The notes under the pieces were generated by a model. It saw nothing but the letters and a program-made list of their open reading frames with translations. It did not search any database and was not told where the DNA came from. Source: Anaerolineae bacterium (GTDB lineage Bacteria > Chloroflexota > Anaerolineae > JAADDB01). Taken from it: a stretch of 35,927 bases of DNA. The position numbers and the translations under genes were made by a program. This document shows positions 48 to 16,682 of this stretch, piece after piece (position 1 is the first letter of the stretch; each line of letters opens with the position of its first letter). The DNA lies in NCBI GenBank assembly GCA_015489285.1, contig WGAA01000230.1, forward strand, positions 1 to 35,927, read 5' to 3'.

Positions 48-2924
48 TTACCATGCAATGGTGGGCACAAAGGTGTGGCGTGGCAACGGGTAGATGGCAA
101 AGTCCACCCCCAGAGTAACATTTGCGTCTACTCGCACTTCCCGCTCCATGTCGCCCACGATGTAAACCCCGCCGGGATATACTATACGAACGACATACTC
201 ACCCGGCAACACGTTGGTGAACTCATAAGTCCCTGTGTTGTCCGTCGTCACCTGCCATCCCGGACCACCGTCCTTGGGGATGAGTTGTACGGCGATGCCG
301 GGCACCCCGGGTTCGTCACTGTCCCGTTCGCCATCACGGTCCATATCAGACCACACAACTCCCCGCACGATCCCTGTCGTCGGGGTGGGCGTAGGAGAGG
401 GCGTAAACGTAGGGGTCGGAGTCGGTTCTTTCACCAACCCAAAGTGCAGGTTGAGAATGTGATGACACGGGTGGACCAGAGTCACCCGATGCATTGTGGG
501 ATAAAAGACCGTATACCCTGCCGGGGGTTCAATAGTTACTGTATACTCCCCTAAAGGTATGCCCCCAACCTGCCACCAGCCATGCGCGTTAGAAAGAACC
601 GTTCGATCGACGGGGCCGTGGATGTGGATAACAGCACCGGGGATGCCGGGTTCCCTATAGGGTTGATATGTCATATTTCGGTTCAGGTCCTCATAAACGA
701 CACCTCCTAGTGAAGTGAAGCAGCCTGTAGGAGTGGGTGTCGGTGTGTACGTCGCCGTAGGGGTGGGAGTAGCTGCTGGGGTAGCCGTATAAGTTACGGT
801 GGCCGTGGCCGTGCTCGTGGGCAGCGGCGTCAACGTCGACGTGGCCGTGGCTGTGCTTGTGGGCAGTGGCGTCGAGGTCGATGTCGCCGTAGCCGTGCTC
901 GTGGGCAGCGGCGTCAACGTCGACGTGGCCGTGGCCGTGCTCGTGGGCACTGGCGTAGGGGTCCAAGTTGCCGTGGGTGTATTCGTTGCCGTTGGCGTGT
1001 TCGTGGGTGTAGGGGTCCAAGTAAAGGTGGGCGTTGGTGTTGCCGTTCGAGCTAAGACATAGGCTGCACCGGCACGCGAGTTAACAAAAGGAGCCCCTAC
1101 GAGCGTGTTGTACCCGTTGTTATCTATTCCTACGGAGAAACCAAAACGATCTCCGGCCGCGCCATCAGAAGCCGTGAATTTAGCCTCTTGAACCCAAGAG
1201 GTACCGCTCCGGGCAAACACGTAGGCTGCCCCTTGAGAGGAATTCTTCCCCGGGGCGCCGACTATCACCGTGTCCCCATCACCGGAAAGGGTGACAGATT
1301 GGCCGAAGTAGTCGCCTGCTGCCGTGTCACTGGGCAAGAGTTTGGCCTGTTGGGTCCACGTGGAACCACTTCGTACAAAAATGTAAGCGGCACCTGCATT
1401 CGAATTTTTTCCAAGGGCCCCGATGGCTCCCGTATTACCGTCCTGGGAAAGCGCTGCAACCCAACCGAATTTGTCTCCCGCGACACCGTCACTGGCTAAG
1501 AGTTTGACCTGTTGGCTCCACGTGGAACCACTTCGTACAAAAATGTAAGCGGCACCGCGGTTGGAATCTTTGCCGTAAGCTCCGATTAACGCCGTATTGC
1601 CATCACCGGAAAGGGCCACACCGCGACCGAACCAATCCCCCGCTACGCTGTCATTTGCCGTAAGTTTCGCCTGCTGGTACCACGTCGTTCCACTACGCAC
1701 GAAAATGTAGGCAGCATTTCCTTCATAAGCCCCGATAATGGCCGTATTTCCATCGTATGACAATTTCAGTGTATGACCAAACTTCTCGTCGACACTGACA
1801 CTGGATCCTACAAATTTCGCCTGTTGCGTCCACGTCGTCCCACTGCGAACAAACACGTATGCTGCACCGGTACGATTCGAGCCCACATATGCCTGGAACG
1901 CCCCAACAAGTGCCGTGTTACCGTCGGCGGAAAGGGAGACGGCCCACCCGAAGTAAGCGAAATTGCTGGGATCGCTGGCAACCAGCTTTGCCTGTTGCGT
2001 CCACGTCGTCCCGCTGCGGACAAACACATACGCCGCACCGGCGTCTGGTATACTACCAAGATCGGTGAGATGAGCCCCTACGAGGGCCGTACTTCCATTC
2101 TGTGACATCGCAACGGATACACCCAACCAGTTATTCGAAGCTGCATCCGACGCGACCAACTTTGCCTGTTGTACCCACGGATCTATCCGCAACGGGTAAA
2201 CGGCATGAGCATCATCAACAACCAAGCGGACCTGCCGTCCAACAAGTTCCATGTGAGCCGGGAGGCCTCGGCCCAAGGCATCCACGGCCAAAAGCTCCCG
2301 GTACACAACGTCACCAAATCGAACGCCCCCGGGCACACGCGTTCCCACCCGGTCGGCCTCTACCGTCAGAACCAGAGGACCGGCTCCTTGAGGGCGTTCC
2401 GCCACGGTGAACCCGTGTTCGACCCCCACACTCACGTTACGGTACCACTCGGTGAGAGGGCCATAGGTGTATTGCACCTCGTTACCTTGGATATCAGGAG
2501 GGTGCAGGGGAAGAGAAACAAGGGCTGCAGGACGTCCCCAAGAGACTAAATGCAACCGTACGTTCTCGGTGCTCGCGCGAACGAGGAGCCCTTCCTGGTC
2601 CCAACACACCTGCCAATTTTGAGCTACATTCACCCCACACCCTGTGGAAGTATCGATGTGATATTGAGCCGGGGCTTCACGAGCCAGCACATCGTAATAC
2701 GCCATCTGCAGGTCCGGGTGTAAGATGAATTCTGCCGGACGGGCAAGCGGGGCAGCAACCGGGGGTGATTTCAAGGGTACAGGTCTCGCCGTCGGCCAGG
2801 GAATGTGGACGAGGGTGGCAACGCTCCCCACCACTAAGAAAAAGATGAGTGACAGGACAAGGAAAAAAGTGATGGGGTTTATGGCTCTGACTGTTGGCCG
2901 GGCCACTGCACGGGTGTCTATCAT
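48..2924 (-). CDS. Membrane-anchored FG-GAP (integrin-alpha-like) seven-repeat propeller surface protein with Thr/Pro-rich linkers and two C-terminal SdrD-B/Cna-B-like domains
   Basis: ORF 48..2954. I prefer the ATG at 2924, preceded by GAGAGGAGG. N-terminal hydrophobic anchor [22 protein letters not shown]. Seven tandem repeats of the form QQAKLxASDxxxxDxFGxxVxLSxDGNTAxxGA...[13 protein letters not shown] (FG-GAP signature, ~nt 1040-2160). TP-rich low complexity at ~720-1035. Two distal segments with GVVxxDxxRDGxxDxxEPGxPG...G.Y.F..L..G.Y pattern. Confidence 0.8.
799..963. repeat. 42-bp in-frame tandem repeat (~3.9 copies) inside the FG-GAP gene linker
   Basis: Unit GTGGCCGTGGCCGTGCTCGTGGGCAGCGGCGTCAACGTCGAC, with units starting at 799, 841, 883 and 925 (last partial) and few substitutions. 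Encodes 14-aa [14 protein letters not shown] repeats on the minus strand. Confidence 0.85.
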
Positions 2925-3118
2925 GATTACACCTCCTCTCGGTACTCCTCTCAATAGTTAGGGTTATAAACCTGTCATTAGTTAAGGTATCAAACCACGA
3001 TCCCCAGCCTAAAGTGACGCCATTGTGCCCGGTATGAATATTAATTTTCTATAGTTAAAGATATCTTACAATTGACAGTGCCATTCACCCCGCATAGGGG
3101 GCCATATTTAGATACATA

Positions 3119-7141: not shown

Positions 7142-7256
7142 ACGGGTACCGTTCCCCCACTTCTCCAACGGGCCCGGATCGGGTATACTTAAAAGGGTCG
7201 TGCCCATCGAGAACGACCGGTCCGGCAACGCGCGGCGGAAGGCGAGAAAGGAACCC

Positions 7257-7892
7257 ATGAGACAGGTGCGGATCGTCCTGGTCGACGACCACCAGATCGT
7301 GCGGGAAGGGTTGCGGAGCATCCTCCAACAGGAGCCGTCCTTCGAAGTGGTGGGAGAAACCGGGGACGGAGCGTACGCGGTGACCCTGATTGCTCACCTC
7401 CAGCCGGACATCGCCCTCGTGGACATCCGCCTGCCGGACATGAGTGGCCTGGACGTCTGTCGCCGGGCCGTCGAACTGAGTCCCCGTACCCGGGTCATCA
7501 TCCTCACGGCGTATCTGGACAGCAACCTGGTCCACCAGGCCTTACAGGCAGGGGCACGGGGATACCTCCTCAAAGATGTGGAGCACATGGCCCTCGTCGA
7601 GCGGATTCACCAAGTACTCCAAGGGGAATACGTCTTCGACCCCCGCGTGACCCACACCCTGGCCGAGTACATCGTGCAACACCCACCGGAAGAAGATGAC
7701 ATCCTCCTCTCCGCGCGGGAGCTCGAGATCTTGCGCCTGGTGGCCCAGGGGCTCACCAACGCGGAAATTGCGGACATCCTTTTCCTCAGCCCGGCCACTG
7801 TGAAGGACCACGTCCGAAACATCACGGCCAAATTGGGCGCGCGCAACCGAGTGGAAGCTGTGACCAAAGCCGTCCGTCAGGGGCTTATATAG
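7257..7892 (+). CDS. NarL/LuxR-family two-component response regulator
   Basis: Receiver VRIVLVDDHQIVREGL ... ALVDIRLPDMSG. C-terminal LuxR HTH LSARELEILRLVAQGLTNAEIADILFLSPATVKDHVRNI. ATG 7257 after AAAGGAA; ORF track start 7200 is less likely. Confidence 0.9.
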   Translation: MRQVRIVLVDDHQIVREGLRSILQQEPSFEVVGETGDGAYAVTLIAHLQPDIALVDIRLPDMSGLDVCRRAVELSPRTRVIILTAYLDSNLVHQALQAGARGYLLKDVEHMALVERIHQVLQGEYVFDPRVTHTLAEYIVQHPPEEDDILLSARELEILRLVAQGLTNAEIADILFLSPATVKDHVRNITAKLGARNRVEAVTKAVRQGLI

Positions 7893-9388
7893 TGACCTTA
7901 CGGGAGCACACCATGAACACGGGTAACGTATCTCCGCCGGATAAGCGTCACCTGGGCTACGCGGAACAAGTCCTCGTCCTGCGTCATCGTATCTGGTCCC
8001 GTCTACGACAACACAAGGGCTTCTCCCCGGCCTCGGTCGAAAGTGTCGCCGCCTGTCTCAACCTCATTATGGACGTGCATCAACTGGAGTACCTGGATAA
8101 GCTGTTAGATCAAGTCAACGGTAAAATCAGCGTCCAGCAATTCATCGACACCGTCCTTCGCATCTCCGCGGAAACGCCCCGTCTTCTCAAGAACATCCAG
8201 TTGCCCCCTTCCCCGTTGACCCCGGAAGCCATCGAGAAACTCCTGGCCGAGGAGGATGTGGAGCAGCTCAGACATTTCCTCCGGCAGACCCTCATTCTCA
8301 TCAGCGAGGGATGCACCCTCCTCACCCTCATCAAACGGGGCGACATCTTACAGCGAACCGTCAACACGGCCTGCCAACTGGTGCAAGGTACCATTGGTCT
8401 CGCCTTAGCCATCGGAGAGGGAACGTGCGTGGACCTCGCCACCTGTGGCACGTCGAATCACGTGGAAATCCCTCCCACCCTCGTCCAGGACCTCCTGCCC
8501 CTTCTCGATACCAAAGGGCCGGCACATGTGAGCCGGCCGGAACGTCTTCCTCAACTCCTGCTGGACATCCTCCGGTACGACGAAACCCAGCAGCTCATCA
8601 GCGTCCCCTTGTGGTACCGGGGGAATCCCCGGGGGTACGTCCTTGTCAACGTTCCTGGGGACATTCCCGTACACGAAGAGGATCTCTACATGCTGGCCGC
8701 GCTGGCCCGCCAGGCCTCCTTTGCCCTGGAAAACCTGACCCTTCACTCCCGGGTCGAGGAGCTGGGGCGGATGGAGGAGCGACAACGCATCGCTCAGGAC
8801 CTCCACGACACCGTCGCCCAGTTGCTTTTCGTCATCGGCATGGAAGCGGAGAGCCTCCTGCACGCCATTCCCGAGGATTCCCCCCTGCACCGGCGGGCAT
8901 TGCGCATCCGGCGCATCACCTCCCGGGCCAGCAATGAGCTCCGCTCCGCCATCGCGGCCCTGCGGTCCTACCCCGTCTCCGGGGAGAACACCCTGGCGGA
9001 CGCGCTCCAGCAGACGGCGGAAGAGTGGGAGCGCCTCTCCAAGCTGGACGTCACCCTCGTGCTCCCCTCCCAATGGCCCACCCTGTCCGGCCGGGCCGCG
9101 AGGGCCATCTACCGTGTGGTCCGGGAAGCCCTCATCAACGTGCAGAAACACGCCCACGCTACAGCCGTCGTCATCAGCGTTACCCCCTTCCCCAACCGGC
9201 TGGTCGTCACCGTCCAGGACAACGGCGTTGGCTTCCCCACACACATCTTCCAACTCCTGGAAAGTGACGTGAACTTCGGCCTGAGGACGATGGAACATCT
9301 GGCCGAGGCCGTAGGGGGATACCTGGAACTTTCCAACGGAGAGGATGGCGGGGCGGTGGTGCGCCTTGTGTTGCCTCTGCCCGCGTGA
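7892..9388 (+). CDS. Cytoplasmic sensor histidine kinase (N-terminal sensory region with possible GAF-like fold, HisKA_3, HATPase_c)
   Basis: H-box EERQRIAQDLHDTVAQ, N-box REALINVQKHAHA, G-box VQDNGVGF. No hydrophobic TM segment seen. GTG 7892 overlaps the regulator stop (TAGTG); alternative ATG at 7913. Confidence 0.85.
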   Translation: MTLREHTMNTGNVSPPDKRHLGYAEQVLVLRHRIWSRLRQHKGFSPASVESVAACLNLIMDVHQLEYLDKLLDQVNGKISVQQFIDTVLRISAETPRLLKNIQLPPSPLTPEAIEKLLAEEDVEQLRHFLRQTLILISEGCTLLTLIKRGDILQRTVNTACQLVQGTIGLALAIGEGTCVDLATCGTSNHVEIPPTLVQDLLPLLDTKGPAHVSRPERLPQLLLDILRYDETQQLISVPLWYRGNPRGYVLVNVPGDIPVHEEDLYMLAALARQASFALENLTLHSRVEELGRMEERQRIAQDLHDTVAQLLFVIGMEAESLLHAIPEDSPLHRRALRIRRITSRASNELRSAIAALRSYPVSGENTLADALQQTAEEWERLSKLDVTLVLPSQWPTLSGRAARAIYRVVREALINVQKHAHATAVVISVTPFPNRLVVTVQDNGVGFPTHIFQLLESDVNFGLRTMEHLAEAVGGYLELSNGEDGGAVVRLVLPLPA

Positions 9389-10428: not shown

Positions 10429-11886
10429 GTGAAGCGACGGCATCTATGGGTGTTCGGAGCTGTACTCTTACTCCTCGTGGTCATCGTTCCCATCGCCTAC
10501 AGCCTTCCTCGCGAACGCCCTCCCGACGATCCTCAACGCTACCTGCAACGTCATCCCGTTCCCCTCAATCACAGCAACCTCATTCAAGGCCCCTTCAAAA
10601 CGCCGCAAGACGTGACCAAGGAATGTCTCCGGTGCCATCCGGACGCGGCAAAGGAGGTCATGCAAACGACCCACTGGACGTGGGAGGGCAAACCGGTGAA
10701 AGTGCCCTGGCGAGACGAACCGGTGACCATCGGCAAGAAGAACCAGATCAACAACTTCTGTATCAGTATCATGGGGAACCAGCACACCTGTACCACGTGC
10801 CACGCGGGGTACGGGTGGAGCGAGGACAAGCCCTTCGACTTCTCCAACCCGTACAATGTGGACTGTCTGGCCTGTCACGCGGACATGAGCGTCTATGCCA
10901 AGGGGTTCTCCGGCCTCCCGGCCAAGGGGGTCGACCTGCTGGCTGCGGCCAAGAGTGTTCACAACCCCAAGCGGGAGAACTGCGGTAAATGCCACTTCAA
11001 CGGCGGAGGCGGCAACAACGTCAAACACGGTGACTTGGACCAAAGCCTGCTCCTCCCGCCGCCGGAGCTGGACGTACACATGGGGCGCCTGGACTTCCAG
11101 TGCACGGACTGCCACAGGACCCAACATCACCGCATCAAGGGCCGTCTCCTCGCCGACAACTACACCATCCCCTATGAGGAGCAGGTCCACTGCACCGATT
11201 GCCACAGCCAGAGACCTCACGAGGACGATCGGTTGAACTTCCACACGAAGAGTGTGGCCTGCCAGACGTGCCACATCCCGGAGATGGCTCCCAAGGACCC
11301 CACGAAAATCTTCTGGGATTGGTCTAAAGCGGGCCAGGATCGTCCCGAGGACCATTACACTTACCTGAAGATCAAGGGCGAATTCATCTACAAGCGCCAC
11401 GTCAAACCGGTTTACCGCTGGTTCAACGGCAACAACAAGTACCGCTACATCCTCGGCGACCGCATCGATCCCACGAAACCGACGATTATCGACGAACCGG
11501 CCGGAAAGATCACCGACCCCACCGCGAAGATCTTCCCCTTCAAGATCCACGTGGCCATCCAGCCCTACGACAAGGAGTACAAGTACTTGCTCGCGCCCAT
11601 CACCTCCGGTCCCGGCGGGTTCTGGCACGATTTCGATTGGGATAAGGCCTTCCGCCTGGCCGAACCCATCACCGGGTTGAAGTACAGCGGCAAGTACGGC
11701 TGGACCGAAACGTGGATGTTCTGGCCAACCACACATATGGTTCGACCCGCGAAAGAGGCCCTACAGTGCGAGGACTGCCACGGCCCCAAGGGACGTCTGG
11801 ATTGGAAGGCTCTGGGATATCCGGGCGACCCGAAGGAGTGGGGGGGCCGTTTCCAGCTGAACTTAGTCCCGGAGGGAGAGAAATAG
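10429..11886 (+). CDS. Octaheme c-type cytochrome, tetrathionate-reductase (Otr) family-like
   Basis: Eight CxxCH motifs (CLRCH, CTTCH, CLACH, CGKCH, CTDCH, CTDCH, CQTCH, CEDCH). N-terminal signal/anchor. CHAGYGW and CGKCHFNGGGGNNVKHGDL resemble the Shewanella Otr family as I recall it. GTG start after AAGGAGG. Confidence 0.75.
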   Translation: MKRRHLWVFGAVLLLLVVIVPIAYSLPRERPPDDPQRYLQRHPVPLNHSNLIQGPFKTPQDVTKECLRCHPDAAKEVMQTTHWTWEGKPVKVPWRDEPVTIGKKNQINNFCISIMGNQHTCTTCHAGYGWSEDKPFDFSNPYNVDCLACHADMSVYAKGFSGLPAKGVDLLAAAKSVHNPKRENCGKCHFNGGGGNNVKHGDLDQSLLLPPPELDVHMGRLDFQCTDCHRTQHHRIKGRLLADNYTIPYEEQVHCTDCHSQRPHEDDRLNFHTKSVACQTCHIPEMAPKDPTKIFWDWSKAGQDRPEDHYTYLKIKGEFIYKRHVKPVYRWFNGNNKYRYILGDRIDPTKPTIIDEPAGKITDPTAKIFPFKIHVAIQPYDKEYKYLLAPITSGPGGFWHDFDWDKAFRLAEPITGLKYSGKYGWTETWMFWPTTHMVRPAKEALQCEDCHGPKGRLDWKALGYPGDPKEWGGRFQLNLVPEGEK

Positions 11887-11889
11887 GCC

Positions 11890-14775
11890 ATGACGAATCT
11901 ACGATCTTTCTCACTGCGCACGGGCATATTCTTGACCATCCTGTCGGCCCTGGTCCTGGGCCTCATCTGGGGATTTCCCTACGTCCGGGCCCAGACGGGG
12001 GTCCCTCCTCTCGAGACGGTGACCATTGAGCTCCCACCCAAAGGTTCACCCATGCACCCGCCGTTCCCCATCCTGGACGCGAACGGCGAGCACGTCCTCA
12101 AAAGCGGTCGACCCATGTCCACCATGCGCACGTGCGGCCAATGTCACGATACAAACTTCATCGCCACCCACAGCTACCATGTGGACATGGGCCTTTCGGA
12201 TATACTGCACCGACGCACACCGGCCTCGGGAGAACCGTGGGATGTCTCCAACGGCCCCTTTGGCCGCTGGGATCCCCTGTTCTACAGGTACCTCTCCCAG
12301 CCCGGGGATGAGCGCCTCGACCTGAGCACGGCCGAGTGGATAATGACCCAGGGGATATACCATCCGGGGGGCGGCCCGGCCGAAATCTCCCGGGAGGGAC
12401 AACTGCTGACCCAACTGGAGCCGGACCCCACCCACCCGGAAACGGCCATCCTGGACGCGACCACAGGCCAGGCCAAGCCCTGGGATTGGCGCCGTTCGGG
12501 CACGGTGGAGGTCAACTGCATCCTCTGCCACACGCCCAACCCCAATAACCAGGCACGCATCCAGGCCCTGAAAGAGGGGGCCTTCGCCTGGGCGAACACG
12601 GCCACACTCCTGGGCACGGGCATCGTGGATAAGACCGCGGACGGCTGGCACTGGAATCCCAACGCCTTTGGTCCCGACGGCAAGCTGAAGAAGGCCTTCG
12701 TGACCATCCAGGAACCGTCGAACAAGAACTGTGCCGCCTGCCACGGTCCGGTGCACACCGACCCCAGCCAACCTGCCGTTGTGACCGAACTCAATCCGCA
12801 AACGGCCACCGTGGGCCAGGTGTTCTCCGGACAACGCATCTCCAAATCGGGCATGAACATCCAGGGGAAGGAAAAGCTCACCCGGCCCTGGGACGTCCAC
12901 ATGGACCGAGGACTTTCCTGTGTGGACTGCCACTTTGCCCTGAACAACCCGGCCCAGGCGTGGGAGAAACGGGAAAATCGGCCGCACACCCTCGTGTACG
13001 ATCCGCGGCGTCTGGACATCGGCGACTACCTCAAAACCCCCGTCCACGACTTCGCCCGGGGCGAGACGGCCCAACACCCCCTCGATCCCAAGAGCAAGGG
13101 GACGATGCGGCGGTGTGAGGATTGCCACGATGCCAAACGGGTCCACACAGGTGTGCTCCCGTACGCCAACCGGCACCTGAGCGTTCTGGCCTGTGAAACG
13201 TGCCACATCCCCAAACTGTACGCCCCGGCCATCGAGGCCTACGACTGGACCGTCCTCATGCCCGACAAATCCCCGCGGGTCGTTTACCGGGGGATGGACG
13301 GCCCGGCCCCCATGCCCGGTGGAGACGTCCCGCCGACGGTGGCCAACCTCGTCACCGGTTACACCCCTGTGACCTTGTTACGGCACAACCGCACGGGGAT
13401 GCCCGAACTGACCACGCCGAACTGGCTCTACACCCTCATCGGCACCACGTCAAAAGGTGAACGCACCACCTCTAAGAGCGGTGGCGACTGGATAGCACCT
13501 TACAACCTGATTACCACCTGGTTCTGGGTGTACACCGATGCCAACGGACGGGTGCGCCCCGTTCGGCGCATCGACCTGGAGAAGGCCTGGTTCGACGGGG
13601 ATACCTACGCGGCGGACGTCGTAGCTCTCTTCGACGCGAACCGGGACGGACAACTGAGCCCCGACGAGCTCGTCCTGGACACCAAGGCAAAACGGGATCT
13701 CATCGCCCAACGCCTGGCTGCATTGGGCCTGAAGAACCCACACATCGAGGGGCGTGTTCGCCCGTACAGCGTAAGCCACGACGTCGCGGAGAAGGGGTGG
13801 GCCCTCGAAGAGTGCACGGCCTGCCATAACACCCAATCCCGTCTCACACGCCCCATGCAATTGGCCCCTTACGTGCCTGCGGGGGTCGAGCCCACCTTCG
13901 TCAAGGACACCAATGTGGTCAAGACGGGGCGCATGGTGAAGAAGGAAGATGGCCTCTACCTCCAACCCGACCCCAAGGACTACGGCCTCTACATCTTCGG
14001 CCATGACCGAATCCCCATCATCGACTGGTTTGGGTTCCTCCTCTTCGTCGGCGTCATTCTGGGCGTGAGCGGCCATGCGGCCCTGCGCATCTACGCGGCA
14101 AAGCGGCGGAAACATGCCCACGCCGGCTCGGTGGAAGAGGTCTACCTCTACACGCCCTTCGAGCGATTCTGGCACTGGCTCCAGGCGACGACCATCGGCT
14201 TACTGCTGGTCACCGGGTTGCTCATCCACCGTCCGGACTTCTGGCCGGCCCTGAGCAACTACCGTTACCTCGTCCCCATTCACAACGTCTCCGCGGCCCT
14301 GCTCATCCTGGATGCCTCCCTCTCCCTCTTCTACCACCTGACCACAGGGGCCATCCGGGAGTTCATCCCCAAGCCGCGGGGCTTCTTCGACCAAGCCATA
14401 CAACAGGTCCGTTATTACACCTACGGCATCTTCCGGGGTGAGCCGCACCCCTTCGAGAAGGTGCCCGGACGCAAATTGAACCCGTTACAGCAGGTCACCT
14501 ACTTTGGGCTCCTCAACGTCCTGCTGCCCTTGCAAATGCTCACCGGTCTCCTCATGTGGGGAGAGCAGTATTGGCCCGACGCCATACAGAAGATCGGCGG
14601 GCTCCACACGCTGGCGCCCATCCACTCCCTGGTGGCGTGGCTCTTCGCCTCCTTCGTCGTGGGCCACGTGTACCTCACAACGACCGGCCTGACACCACTG
14701 GAGGACATCCGGGGAATGATCACCGGTTGGGAACGGATAGAGGTGCCCGAGGGCAAGGGAAGCCATGAAGCGTAA
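11890..14775 (+). CDS. Fusion protein: periplasmic heptaheme cytochrome c domain + extra TM + C-terminal FdnI/HydC-type diheme cytochrome b (CbcL-like putative quinol dehydrogenase)
   Basis: Signal peptide. Seven CxxCH (Cys 82, 210, 281, 344, 409, 435, 642). TM at ~aa 712-735. Then four His-bearing helices (FERFWHWLQATTIGLLLVTGLLIH, VPIHNVSAALLIL..FYH, QQVTYFGLLNVLLPLQMLTGLLMW, APIHSLVAWLFASFVVGHVYL) typical of PF01292-type b cytochromes. Starts 3 nt after the octaheme gene. Confidence 0.8.
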   Translation: MTNLRSFSLRTGIFLTILSALVLGLIWGFPYVRAQTGVPPLETVTIELPPKGSPMHPPFPILDANGEHVLKSGRPMSTMRTCGQCHDTNFIATHSYHVDMGLSDILHRRTPASGEPWDVSNGPFGRWDPLFYRYLSQPGDERLDLSTAEWIMTQGIYHPGGGPAEISREGQLLTQLEPDPTHPETAILDATTGQAKPWDWRRSGTVEVNCILCHTPNPNNQARIQALKEGAFAWANTATLLGTGIVDKTADGWHWNPNAFGPDGKLKKAFVTIQEPSNKNCAACHGPVHTDPSQPAVVTELNPQTATVGQVFSGQRISKSGMNIQGKEKLTRPWDVHMDRGLSCVDCHFALNNPAQAWEKRENRPHTLVYDPRRLDIGDYLKTPVHDFARGETAQHPLDPKSKGTMRRCEDCHDAKRVHTGVLPYANRHLSVLACETCHIPKLYAPAIEAYDWTVLMPDKSPRVVYRGMDGPAPMPGGDVPPTVANLVTGYTPVTLLRHNRTGMPELTTPNWLYTLIGTTSKGERTTSKSGGDWIAPYNLITTWFWVYTDANGRVRPVRRIDLEKAWFDGDTYAADVVALFDANRDGQLSPDELVLDTKAKRDLIAQRLAALGLKNPHIEGRVRPYSVSHDVAEKGWALEECTACHNTQSRLTRPMQLAPYVPAGVEPTFVKDTNVVKTGRMVKKEDGLYLQPDPKDYGLYIFGHDRIPIIDWFGFLLFVGVILGVSGHAALRIYAAKRRKHAHAGSVEEVYLYTPFERFWHWLQATTIGLLLVTGLLIHRPDFWPALSNYRYLVPIHNVSAALLILDASLSLFYHLTTGAIREFIPKPRGFFDQAIQQVRYYTYGIFRGEPHPFEKVPGRKLNPLQQVTYFGLLNVLLPLQMLTGLLMWGEQYWPDAIQKIGGLHTLAPIHSLVAWLFASFVVGHVYLTTTGLTPLEDIRGMITGWERIEVPEGKGSHEA

Positions 14776-14809: not shown

Positions 14810-15367
14810 ATGAAAGGAGAACAGGCACATCGCGAGGCGCGAGGGTGGTTCAATCGGCCCACGAAACCGTACACATACCCCTACTGGGGTGGGATCTTGC
14901 TGGGGATCGTCCTCTTCCTGGCCTTCCTCATCCCGGGAACGGGGCTGGGAGCGTCGGGGGCTCTGGCCGCGGTGGGCGCGTTCATCGTCGACATCATCGC
15001 TCCGGGCCACGTGGACCGGACGCCCATTTTGGCCCACCTGGCCGGTGGCCACAAGAATCCCTTTTCCAGCTGGCTCATCCCCCTGGTCATTGGGATGATT
15101 ATCGGAGGCTTCGTCTCCGGTGTCATCGGCGGACGGGCCAAGTGGGAGACGACTCGCGGTCCTCGCATTTCCGATAAGACCCGCTGGGTCCTCGCGTTCG
15201 TGGGCGGCTTCATCTTCGTCTACGGGGCTCGGATGGCCCGAGGGTGTACGTCGGGCCAAGCACTGACGGGTGGGGCCGTCCTCTCCGCGGGGAGCTGGGC
15301 GATTATGATGGCCATCTTTGCAGGGGCGTACGCGCTGGCGTACTTCCTGCGCAACGTGTGGAATTAA
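14810..15367 (+). CDS. YeeE/YedE-family sulfur-compound transporter, half-size subunit A
   Basis: ARMARGCTSGQALTGG motif and multiple Gly-rich TM helices. ATG 14810 after GGAGGTGG; alternative ATG at 14765 overlaps the upstream stop. Confidence 0.8.
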   Translation: MKGEQAHREARGWFNRPTKPYTYPYWGGILLGIVLFLAFLIPGTGLGASGALAAVGAFIVDIIAPGHVDRTPILAHLAGGHKNPFSSWLIPLVIGMIIGGFVSGVIGGRAKWETTRGPRISDKTRWVLAFVGGFIFVYGARMARGCTSGQALTGGAVLSAGSWAIMMAIFAGAYALAYFLRNVWN

Positions 15368-15388: not shown

Positions 15389-16618
15389 ATGGCGCCTTTT
15401 CCTTTGACTCTGTCCAAACCTCTTCTGTACGTGGTTCTGCTTATTCTGGGCTTTGGTTTCGGCTTTGCCCTGGAAACGTCCGGGTTCAACTACGCGCCCA
15501 ACCTGGCCGCCCAGTTTTACTTCAAGGACACCCGGGTCCTCAAGGTCATGTTCACGGCCATCATCGTGGCCATGGTCCTCGTGTTCCTGGCCGTGGAGAC
15601 GTTCGTCCTGGATTATTCCCTCATCTGGGTGCCCCCCACCTACTTGTGGCCGGGGATCCTGGGCGGGTTGATTATGGGCGTGGGCTTCATCATCGGAGGA
15701 TACTGTCCGGGGACCTCTATGGTCGCCGCGGTGACGGGCAAGATCGACGGGATCTTCTTCGTCCTCGGCGGCATCGCCGGCTGTATCACCTTTTCCGAAA
15801 CGGAGCGGTTCTTCCATTACTTCTATAACGACAGTTACTACGGCCGCCTGACGCTGATGGACGTGTTCCACCTGCCCATTGGGGTCGTTGTGCTCCTCGT
15901 GCTCTTCATGGCCTTCTTCATGTTCTGGATTTCGGAAAAGCTGGAACAGCGGTTCGGGGGGAAGGACCCGGCTCAGGAATCCCGGTTGCGTTACGCGGTG
16001 GCCCTGGTGATCCTCCTGGCCGGTGTGGGCGTCCTCCTCATCGGTGACCCGACGCCGGAACGGGGTTGGGCCCATATCGCTCCCCAGAAGCAACCGCTCC
16101 TGGAAAACCGCAGCGTCTACATTCACCCCGGCGAGGTTCTGAAGTACATCGACGACGACACGGTCGCGGTGGAGTTGATCGACGTCCGGGATGATGCGGC
16201 CTACAACCTGTTCCACCTCTACTGGGCGAAACACGTGCCCCTCGCACGCATAGACACCATCGTGCCCACCCTGGCGAAGAACCCCTACGCGGATTCCACC
16301 CTCGTGGTGGTCATGAGCAACGACGAGACGTTGGCCACGGAAGCGTGGAAGCACCTCGTGGGGGGTAACGTGCCGAACGTGTATATCATGGACGGGGGCC
16401 TGAACCACTGGCTGGAGGTGTTCGGTGAAGAGGATGGGTTGGAACCCCTTCCCGGGCCCTTCGCGGATGAGGAGCTGCACTTCCGCATCCCTCAAGCCAA
16501 AGGGGACGGATTTGCGGCTTCGCAACCTTGGTGGCATCATTATAAAGACGTGTTACAATTTACCCCTAAAGTGAAGCTCCAACGCAAGAAGGCGCCAACA
16601 GGCGGTGGGTGCGGTTAA
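15389..16618 (+). CDS. YeeE/YedE half-size subunit B fused to a Cys-less rhodanese-like domain, with a C-terminal GGGCG tail
   Basis: GGYCPGTSMVA transporter motif and six hydrophobic helices (aa 12-219). Rhodanese pattern LIDVRDDAAYNLFHLYWAKHVP ... LVVVMSNDETLATEAW ... VYIMDGGLNHW, with Met where the catalytic Cys normally sits. Terminal ...KVKLQRKKAPTGGGCG-stop. Confidence 0.8.
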   Translation: MAPFPLTLSKPLLYVVLLILGFGFGFALETSGFNYAPNLAAQFYFKDTRVLKVMFTAIIVAMVLVFLAVETFVLDYSLIWVPPTYLWPGILGGLIMGVGFIIGGYCPGTSMVAAVTGKIDGIFFVLGGIAGCITFSETERFFHYFYNDSYYGRLTLMDVFHLPIGVVVLLVLFMAFFMFWISEKLEQRFGGKDPAQESRLRYAVALVILLAGVGVLLIGDPTPERGWAHIAPQKQPLLENRSVYIHPGEVLKYIDDDTVAVELIDVRDDAAYNLFHLYWAKHVPLARIDTIVPTLAKNPYADSTLVVVMSNDETLATEAWKHLVGGNVPNVYIMDGGLNHWLEVFGEEDGLEPLPGPFADEELHFRIPQAKGDGFAASQPWWHHYKDVLQFTPKVKLQRKKAPTGGGCG

Positions 16619-16652: not shown

Positions 16653-16682
16653 TAGAGCCCGACGCCTTGGCGTCGGGCTCTA
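16653..16682 (+). terminator. Rho-independent-type terminator after the cytochrome/YeeE operon
   Basis: Perfect 14-bp inverted repeat TAGAGCCCGACGCC-tt-GGCGTCGGGCTCTA, followed by CTCGTTTAT (short T-run). Confidence 0.55.

Follow-up and report, generated by a model that had tools for sequence, protein, structure and literature searches.

OTR, the octahaem cytochrome c of Shewanella oneidensis (PDB 1SP3, TIGR04315), was crystallised in 2004. Its active site is reportedly haem 2, which Mowat et al. (2004) are said to have found ligated by Lys56, with Cys64 close by. The five-coordinate haem sits in the N-terminal module according to Soares et al. (2022), who left OTR out of their phylogenetic analysis of multihaem cytochromes as a structural outlier (PMC9250108), and a 2026 study states that the physiological role of the protein has never been established (PMC12949373). 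Here, we analyse a gene that directly follows that of an OTR-family protein in a 35,927-nucleotide stretch of DNA from an Anaerolineae bacterium (assembly GCA_015489285.1, contig WGAA01000230.1; "the window" is this whole stretch). The gene (11890..14775, + strand, ATG start) encodes a 961-aa fusion of a heptahaem c domain and a dihaem cytochrome b. From sequence comparisons and structural models, we put at roughly 0.6 the probability that this fusion links the quinone pool, as a membrane subunit, to the OTR-family octahaem cytochrome encoded next to it.

The fusion resembles OTR in its fold, in the order of its haem motifs, in the beta-rich segment between the last two haems and in the distal-His motifs DVH..,.H...AC..CH and ..H before the last haem. 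Unlike OTR, it carries extra inserts, an EF-hand-like loop and a covalently attached membrane cytochrome b, and it lacks Lys56 and Cys64. The b domain resembles PhsC/YdhU (NF011582) in its five helices, the N-out first helix with a His, the four haem-b His and the motifs GE.HPF and NPLQQ; however, its partner on the outer face is the fused c-haem domain, whereas that of PhsC is an iron-sulfur (FeS) subunit. FdnI (1KQF_C) and HyaC (4GD3/6G94) share with the b domain a dihaem fold of four helices and the positions of its His ligands, but they lack the fifth helix of the fusion and act as quinone reductases below FeS subunits. The tetrahaem quinol dehydrogenases NrfH, CymA and NapC are functional analogues, as dedicated membrane donors to periplasmic multihaem reductases, although their fold is unrelated, they lack haem b and they span the membrane with only one transmembrane (TM) helix.

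An earlier sequence-only reading of the gene had called the product a CbcL-like single-polypeptide quinol dehydrogenase. CbcL of Geobacter sulfurreducens has six TM helices, nine haems and a periplasmic domain of ~29 kDa (PMC9129911); like the fusion, it joins an FdnI/HydC-family dihaem b to a multihaem c in one polypeptide, and it is considered to connect quinol with acceptors in the periplasm (PMC9129911). The published description of CbcL sets it apart from the fusion, which has five TM helices, seven haems over ~670 aa and an N-terminal c domain. Moreover, CbcL works with PpcA and in extracellular electron transfer, and has no catalytic octahaem enzyme as its partner. What survives of the comparison is the exported multihaem c and dihaem b in one chain; the likeness to CbcL itself is one of functional analogy only.

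We found no description of the heptahaem-b fusion in the full-text literature, and no curated family covers it. Otr has been noted in Anaerolineae bins (PMC7887784), and the nearest mention in the literature is of an Ignavibacteriae genome with an 'Otr + cytochrome b561' cluster (PMC7509429). Because the Pfam description of PF01292, the family matched by the b domain, is "Prokaryotic cytochrome b561", that Ignavibacteriae protein may belong to the fusion family.

Relation of the c domain to OTR

A Shine-Dalgarno site (GGAGGGAGA) lies upstream of the fusion ATG. Hydropathy marks hydrophobic segments at aa 11–29 and at aa 708–732 (TM0). The former is the h-region of a Sec-type signal peptide (aa 1–34; 11890..11991, +) with R5 and R10 in its n-region and cleavage between VRA and Q, the Ala34 of which is kept in 79 of 82 homologues. 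Between signal peptide and TM0 lies the exported OTR-like heptahaem domain (aa 35–707, ~670 aa; 11992..14010, +), as delineated with hhalign, AlphaFold2 (AF2) and Foldseek. A script places the first Cys of each CxxCH motif at residues 82, 210, 281, 344, 409, 435 and 642, which reproduces exactly the count of seven motifs, and the gaps of 128 aa between motifs 1 and 2 and 207 aa between motifs 6 and 7, given by the sequence-only reading. All 14 Cys of the 961-aa protein fall inside these motifs, with none elsewhere. The seven motifs are invariant in 32/32 database homologues and in 82/82 full-length homologues from independent genome loci; such a pattern is far beyond chance and marks a real gene under selection. 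A frameshift or assembly artefact was rejected, since the reading frame is unbroken in every full-length locus.

Profile and model comparisons indicate that the c domain is a diverged, degenerate paralogue of OTR that has retained seven of the eight haem sites. Family members fall into a long form, comprising the 900–960-aa Chloroflexota proteins, and a short form of 700–800 aa. Against a profile of 74 neighbour OTRs, the long-form c-domain profile aligned over its full length (hhalign probability 97.9%, E 4e-13) and the short-form profile aligned with E 2e-16, with probabilities across forms of 97.9–98.7%; a PDB profile search with the fusion also matched 1sp3. The AF2 model of the c domain alone (76 sequences) had a predicted local distance difference test score (pLDDT) of 83.1 and a predicted template modelling score (pTM) of 0.86. 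Searched with Foldseek against 350,542 PDB chains, this model returned 1SP3 as its sole significant match (E 2e-9, probability 1.00, 555 columns). The global TM-score to 1SP3 was low (0.27/0.39), which we attribute to the inserts and to the orientation of sub-domains in the model. In the full-length AF2 model (pLDDT 65), the c domain was unreliable, and the Foldseek matches were b-domain relatives only. The fusion falls outside the OTR family proper, with 38.4 bits on TIGR04315 against a cut-off of 375 and seven motifs rather than eight.

In all mapping alignments, fusion haems 2–7 pair with OTR haems 3–8. The profile alignments place CILCH (Cys210; 12517..12531, this and the following motifs all on the + strand) at OTR haem 3, CAACH (Cys281; 12730..12744) at haem 4, CEDCH (Cys409; 13114..13128) at haem 6 and CETCH (Cys435; 13192..13206) at haem 7. 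The fourth motif, CVDCH (Cys344; 12919..12933), corresponds to OTR haem 5 and is preceded by a conserved WDVH (His337), and the seventh, CTACH (Cys642; 13813..13827), corresponds to OTR haem 8 and is preceded by a conserved YS(V/I)xH (His630). The distal-His motifs pair with those of OTR as well: the WDVH before fusion haem 4, a His 10 residues after haem 5, another 6 residues before haem 6 and a fourth 11–12 residues before haem 7. A BLASTP alignment of the fusion with its own OTR was mis-registered in the first half and was kept out of the haem mapping.

The sequence-only reading had taken the haem spacing to be unusually wide and had invoked non-haem inserts in both long gaps. By comparison with OTR, the spacing is not anomalous. 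The OTR fold has 169 aa between its own last two haems, filled by a beta-rich domain, and it is because of this long beta-rich segment that the fusion has a 207-aa gap between haems 6 and 7; that gap is inherent to the fold. The idea of an insert does hold for the gap between haems 1 and 2, where a non-haem segment (aa 98–205; 12181..12504, +) occurs in the long form only and is confident in the AF2 model. Across 50%-identity cluster representatives, haems 1 and 2 are 20 to 128 aa apart, with a spacing of 20–94 aa in family members other than the long form and ~24 aa in the short forms; the Chloroflexota forms carry a confidently folded insert of ~100 aa. From this distribution, we read the 128-aa gap as a lineage feature, a Chloroflexota-specific insert.

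The remaining motif, CGQCH (Cys82; 12133..12147, +), corresponds to either haem 1 or haem 2 of OTR. In the long-form profile alignment, fusion haem 1 falls on OTR haem 1, and OTR haem 2 is left without a motif. Conversely, the short-form alignment and BLASTP inside a triple fusion (a single polypeptide, described below, that also contains OTR) place fusion haem 1 on OTR haem 2 with an identical 24-aa spacing. Segment-only alignments were insignificant, and OTR templates lacking the haem 1 or the haem 2 module gave near-equal scores (131.0 vs 130.7). In the neighbour OTRs, K103 and C111, the equivalents of the 1SP3 haem ligand Lys56 and of Cys64, are invariant (74/74), but no conserved Lys or Cys matches them in the fusion, long-form or short-form alignment, and the fusion position aligned with the active-site Lys is variable (K in 40, Q in 21 and R in 12 of 82). 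Invariant His outside the motifs number 8 in the long form and 7 in the short form, for seven haems. Judged from these alignments, the catalytic signature is gone from the c domain under either haem assignment, and the domain is best read as an electron-transfer module, a putative wire.

Within the beta-rich domain between haems 6 and 7, a 12-residue EF-hand-like loop (DANRDGQLSPDE, aa 582–593; 13633..13668, +) gives a weak match to Pfam EF-hand_5. Its pattern is D582-x-N/D-x-D/N-G-x-L-x-x-x-E593, with conservation at N/D584, D/N586 and G587 and no variation at D582 or E593. Of the long forms, 80/82 have the loop, as do 70/83 short forms and also the triple fusions, but none of the OTRs does (0/74). 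Possible roles for it are structural Ca2+ binding and docking. Another loop of ~28 aa (TPNWLYTLIGTTSKGERTTSKSGGDW, aa 502–529; window 13393-13476) is missing from the homologue consensus and has a pLDDT below 50 in both AF2 models; it is probably an insertion specific to this genome.

Membrane domain and topology

The c domain is followed by TM0 (aa 708–732; 14011..14085, +), which runs from outside to inside and contains the invariant His729, and by a four-helix dihaem cytochrome b core (aa 754–946; 14149..14727, +). The core matches Pfam Ni_hydr_CYTB (PF01292) with 82.3 bits against a gathering threshold of 30.1 (E 5e-23), over model positions 2–179 of 179. Its haem-b ligands H762, H798, H912 and H926 are invariant in 82/82 sequences, with H912 and H926 forming an H-x13-H pair 14 residues apart. 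All four align with HyaC in the PDB profile search and with E. coli YdhU, and in the full-length AF2 model the b part can be superposed on FdnI 1kqf_C (TM-score 0.68, root-mean-square deviation 3.6 Å) and also on HyaC 6g94_A; the FdnI/HydC-type b domain proposed from the sequence alone is borne out. By analogy with FdnI, the predicted haem pairs would be H762/H926 on the cytoplasmic side and H798/H912 on the outer side.

Among NCBIfam models, the top match of the b domain is PhsC NF011582 (141.8 bits, aa 717–949), which falls short of the equivalog threshold of 204 bits; on the same model, triple-fusion and short-form relatives reach 105–127 bits. The alignment to NF011582, from aa 717, already covers TM0. 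YdhU, the PhsC-like protein of E. coli K-12, has the five-helix layout in common with the fusion, and its N-terminal helix reads GLHALLR where the fusion has SGHAALR (H729); in both proteins, the TM0 hydropathy peak is followed by a basic loop. The two also have in common the motifs Y-L-Y...R.WHW (H762), GE.HPF (H853) and NPLQQ, as well as H780 at the outer end of TM1, H798 and H912/H926. The extra conserved His of the PhsC/YdhU family are represented in the fusion by H729, H780 and H853. Genes for the PhsA molybdopterin and PhsB FeS subunits are not adjacent; the neighbours are OTR and the two halves of a YeeE/YedE protein. Given a score under the cut-off and the wrong genomic context, we do not regard the fusion as a PhsC equivalog.

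The extra TM helix that the sequence-only reading had placed before the four-helix bundle is present, but it had been explained as an adaptation that puts the c domain outside. The alignments argue instead that TM0 is an inherited trait of the PhsC/YdhU subfamily, as YdhU has the same helix with its His. Because the N terminus of this subfamily is N-out, a periplasmic fusion at that end is topologically trivial. Lys and Arg together number 5 (aa 733–755) and 8 (aa 820–864) in the predicted inside loops and 1 (aa 781–790) and 1 (aa 892–904) in the outside loops. This distribution supports a predicted topology in which the c domain lies outside, TM0 runs out to in and an N-in four-helix bundle follows, as had been proposed. 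A cytoplasmic c domain was rejected on the signal peptide and the positive-inside rule. The sequence-only reading had named two observations that would undo it, missing haem-b His and a cytoplasmic c domain; the four His are all in place, and the c domain is predicted to be exported.

Genomic linkage to OTR

The OTR-family gene upstream of the fusion (10429..11886, +) encodes a 485-aa octahaem cytochrome c with 8 CxxCH motifs that scores 548 bits on TIGR04315, above the cut-off of 375. Its GTG start is preceded by AAGGAGG, and its stop lies 3 nt before the fusion ATG.

A database search returned more than 1,600 relatives of the fusion. The best 120 are 51–83% identical (own cluster aside) and nearly all full length, and the only names they carry are "thiosulfate reductase cytochrome b subunit" or "cytochrome b/b6 domain-containing protein". 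Scanning one genome per GTDB species, we recorded at least 588 encoding loci and inspected the best 80. All 80 are labelled as Chloroflexota lineages (Anaerolineae, Caldilineaceae, Herpetosiphon, Thermoflexales, Ca. Amarolinea and Ca. Villigracilis), and the order OTR, fusion, YeeE/YedE half, YeeE/YedE half with rhodanese is found in 80/80, as far as the contigs reach. OTR stands directly upstream in 77/80; in the remaining three, the contig stops before the OTR position. Metagenome loci show the identical cassette order with an ArsR-type regulator in front. In the loci examined, the fusion c domain was never found without OTR in the same or the next gene.

Distribution within Chloroflexota is patchy, with 20 of 401 sampled genomes encoding the fusion and 18 of these among the 24 sampled from one family. 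An exhaustive search of representatives gave 1,542 clusters, 399 of them with E ≤1e-30; seven CxxCH motifs together with the R.WHW motif of the b domain occur in 64 of the best 150 representatives. When the b domain alone was used as query, nearly all the homologues retrieved were pieces of this fusion from short contigs. When the search was seeded with one representative, Deltaproteobacteria, Anaeromyxobacteraceae, Gammaproteobacteria and Kiritimatiellae were among the names. Two loci from other phyla carry the same cassette: in one (L088), an Rrf2 regulator, OTR, an 806-aa fusion and two YeeE halves; in the other (L090), an ArsR regulator, a single protein of 1099 aa and two YeeE halves.

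In four relatives (P0274, P0393 from Kiritimatiellae, P0378 and P0394), OTR, the haem-wire domain and the cytochrome b are combined in one polypeptide. P0274 has 1180 aa and 15 CxxCH motifs, and both it and P0393 combine an N terminus scoring 564–585 bits on TIGR04315 with a PhsC-like C terminus. These triple fusions are Rosetta-stone proteins, and as such they argue for OTR and the heptahaem-b protein working as one complex.

Other architectures were seen as well. A class of ~970–1000 aa (P0407; L089:6001-8961), with Deltaproteobacteria and Gammaproteobacteria among its names, combines OTR, with its 8 haems, and the 7-haem domain in one chain but has no cytochrome b; in L089, the YeeE region downstream is split into small open reading frames (ORFs). 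A 946-aa protein (P0248) has three more N-terminal CxxCH motifs, giving 10 haems plus cytochrome b. By this comparison, the putative haem wire can be lengthened as well as shortened.

In the window, the gene downstream of the fusion encodes the first half of a split YeeE/YedE (Sulf_transp) channel (14810..15367, +; Pfam). The listed ORF begins at 14765 and overlaps the fusion stop by 11 nt, but homologues align only from about residue 19–30, and a GGAGGTG site lies ahead of the ATG at 14810, which is probably the true start. The second YeeE/YedE half carries a rhodanese domain (15389..16618, +; Pfam) and ends in GGGCG; a GGCG tail on this rhodanese-bearing protein (window 16106-16618 region) is present in all full-length homologues examined. 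A 13-bp hairpin (16653..16682, +), terminator-like with a weak T tract, closes the four-gene unit.

In the host genome (2.3 Mb, about 90% complete), an NrfH/NapC-like tetrahaem gene is directly followed by one for a Hao-like octahaem protein (G000:C108:42-2033), both named by eye. We take these two to be another case, separate from the OTR cassette, in which this host pairs an octahaem enzyme with a quinol dehydrogenase. One other multihaem ORF, an ActA-like pentahaem protein also named by eye, is present, and this genome contains no further large multihaem or conduit proteins. Since the octahaem protein has an NrfH-like partner and the pentahaem protein looks ActA-like, OTR is, on this survey, the only multihaem enzyme in the genome without another obvious quinol-side partner.

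Function and implications

In the mechanism we propose, menaquinol would be oxidised at the b domain, at a site on the cytoplasmic side by analogy with Salmonella PhsC. Electrons would cross the membrane via haems bC (H762/H926) and bP (H798/H912), pass along the seven c haems on the extracytoplasmic scaffold and end, on the outer face, at OTR, whose catalytic haem would pass them to a sulfur compound or, less probably, to one of nitrogen. Such outward electron flow would be aided by the membrane potential and would suit a low-potential acceptor; the split YeeE, rhodanese and GGCG-arm proteins would handle the sulfur substrate or product. For Salmonella PhsC, Stoffels et al. (2012), a paper cited in PMC5317093, are said to have described a quinol site on the cytoplasmic side and membrane-potential-assisted outward electron flow. 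We favour the reductive direction because the b domain is closest to PhsC and because the named hosts are mostly heterotrophs and not known sulfur lithotrophs. Were the quinol site of the fusion likewise cytoplasmic, the acceptor might be one of low potential, for example sulfite, thiosulfate or sulfane sulfur, and not tetrathionate or nitrite. This is in line with the 2026 study, according to which tetrathionate respiration does not require OTR and the enzyme may reduce sulfite (PMC12949373). More tentatively, and at odds we would call doubtful, the heptahaem domain and the PhsC-type cytochrome b, working as a reverse loop, might together with OTR, the split YeeE and the GGCG-arm proteins constitute an undescribed respiratory machine, in which menaquinol electrons, assisted by the membrane potential, would enable OTR to act on sulfur species of low potential, possibly arm-bound ones.

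Several observations weigh against a role of the fusion as the quinol-side subunit of OTR. FdnI and HyaC, the structural relatives of its b domain, run in the quinone-reducing direction; Shewanella ANA-3 does not need OTR to respire tetrathionate (PMC12949373); no ResB turned up in this genome (90% complete), in which a CcsA/CcmF-type haem-handling protein is present; and if fusion haem 1 is the homologue of the catalytic haem 2 of OTR, residual catalysis in the c domain would be possible.

The same complex could also run in reverse, with OTR oxidising a low-potential sulfur donor outside (sulfite, or sulfane or persulfide sulfur on the GGCG arm) and the fusion reducing menaquinone at the cytoplasmic-side site, as the FdnI/HyaC-type half of a redox loop that would generate proton-motive force. 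We consider this unlikely but a serious competitor. The nearest solved folds of the b domain, FdnI and HyaC, are periplasm-fed quinone reductases, and the cassette contains parts typical of sulfur oxidation or import, namely a YeeE channel like SoxT (PMC11582611), a rhodanese and a SoxY-like GGCG tail, with ArsR-type regulators beside it in other genomes. Against this, the family that the b domain matches best, PhsC, oxidises quinol on behalf of a reductase, and most of the named hosts are Anaerolineae and other Chloroflexota, Anaeromyxobacteraceae and Kiritimatiellae, not known sulfur lithotrophs. Reduction of menaquinone by the oxidation of thiosulfate to tetrathionate is, moreover, thermodynamically impossible, which counts against reverse flow with that donor.

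Two further explanations would separate the fusion from OTR. A second catalytic site in the c domain, which would make it an OTR-like enzyme carried on its own quinol dehydrogenase and leave the upstream OTR a parallel or auxiliary role, gains from the placement of haem 1 on the catalytic haem 2 with 24-aa spacing in the short-form alignment and the triple-fusion BLASTP, and from the equal scores of the haem-1-less and haem-2-less templates. We nonetheless find it improbable, as the invariant Lys and Cys of OTR have no conserved counterpart in either alignment, the 7–8 invariant extra His would fit an all-bis-His set of seven haems, and the c domain always occurs with OTR in the same or the next gene in the loci examined. 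Still harder to credit, and to our minds very improbable, is an inner-membrane quinol oxidase of the CbcL/ImcH type that serves extracellular electron transfer to metal or an electrode independently of OTR. The general design of dihaem b and multihaem c in one chain is shared (PMC9129911), and there are weak Pfam matches to MtrC/MtrF and c7 domains, all under threshold; however, the only fold relative of the c domain is OTR and not c7 or MtrC, linkage to OTR and the sulfur channel is invariable, fusions with OTR exist, and the genome holds no other large multihaem or conduit proteins.

Elsewhere in the window, the region upstream of the cassette (7200-9388) encodes, ahead of CoaX, a LuxR-type response regulator and a GAF/HisKA_3 histidine kinase. 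In other genomes this place is taken by an ArsR-type or Rrf2 regulator, so regulation may differ in this genome. Further away, on the minus strand, a 968-aa protein (window 48-2954) has six FG-GAP repeats and SdrD-B/carboxypeptidase-regulatory-like domains, and is probably a cell-surface protein unrelated to the cassette.

In summary, our analysis would place OTR in at least 588 species-level genomes, and in several phyla, alongside a dedicated quinone-coupled partner that is itself derived from OTR and is sometimes fused to it. The fusion would then show how a paralogue of an enzyme can be reused as an electron wire. OTR and the fusion would make a defined complex for purification and offer a route to testing the role of OTR in cells, and the b domain yields a prediction about energetics, that electron input to OTR is of the PhsC type and possibly assisted by the proton-motive force. 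The database names "thiosulfate reductase cytochrome b subunit" and "cytochrome b/b6 domain-containing protein" would be corrected, and metagenomic calls of sulfur-cycle potential in Anaerolineae would improve. Should the cassette indeed encode an undescribed respiratory machine, OTR would gain a physiological reaction and a set of partners.

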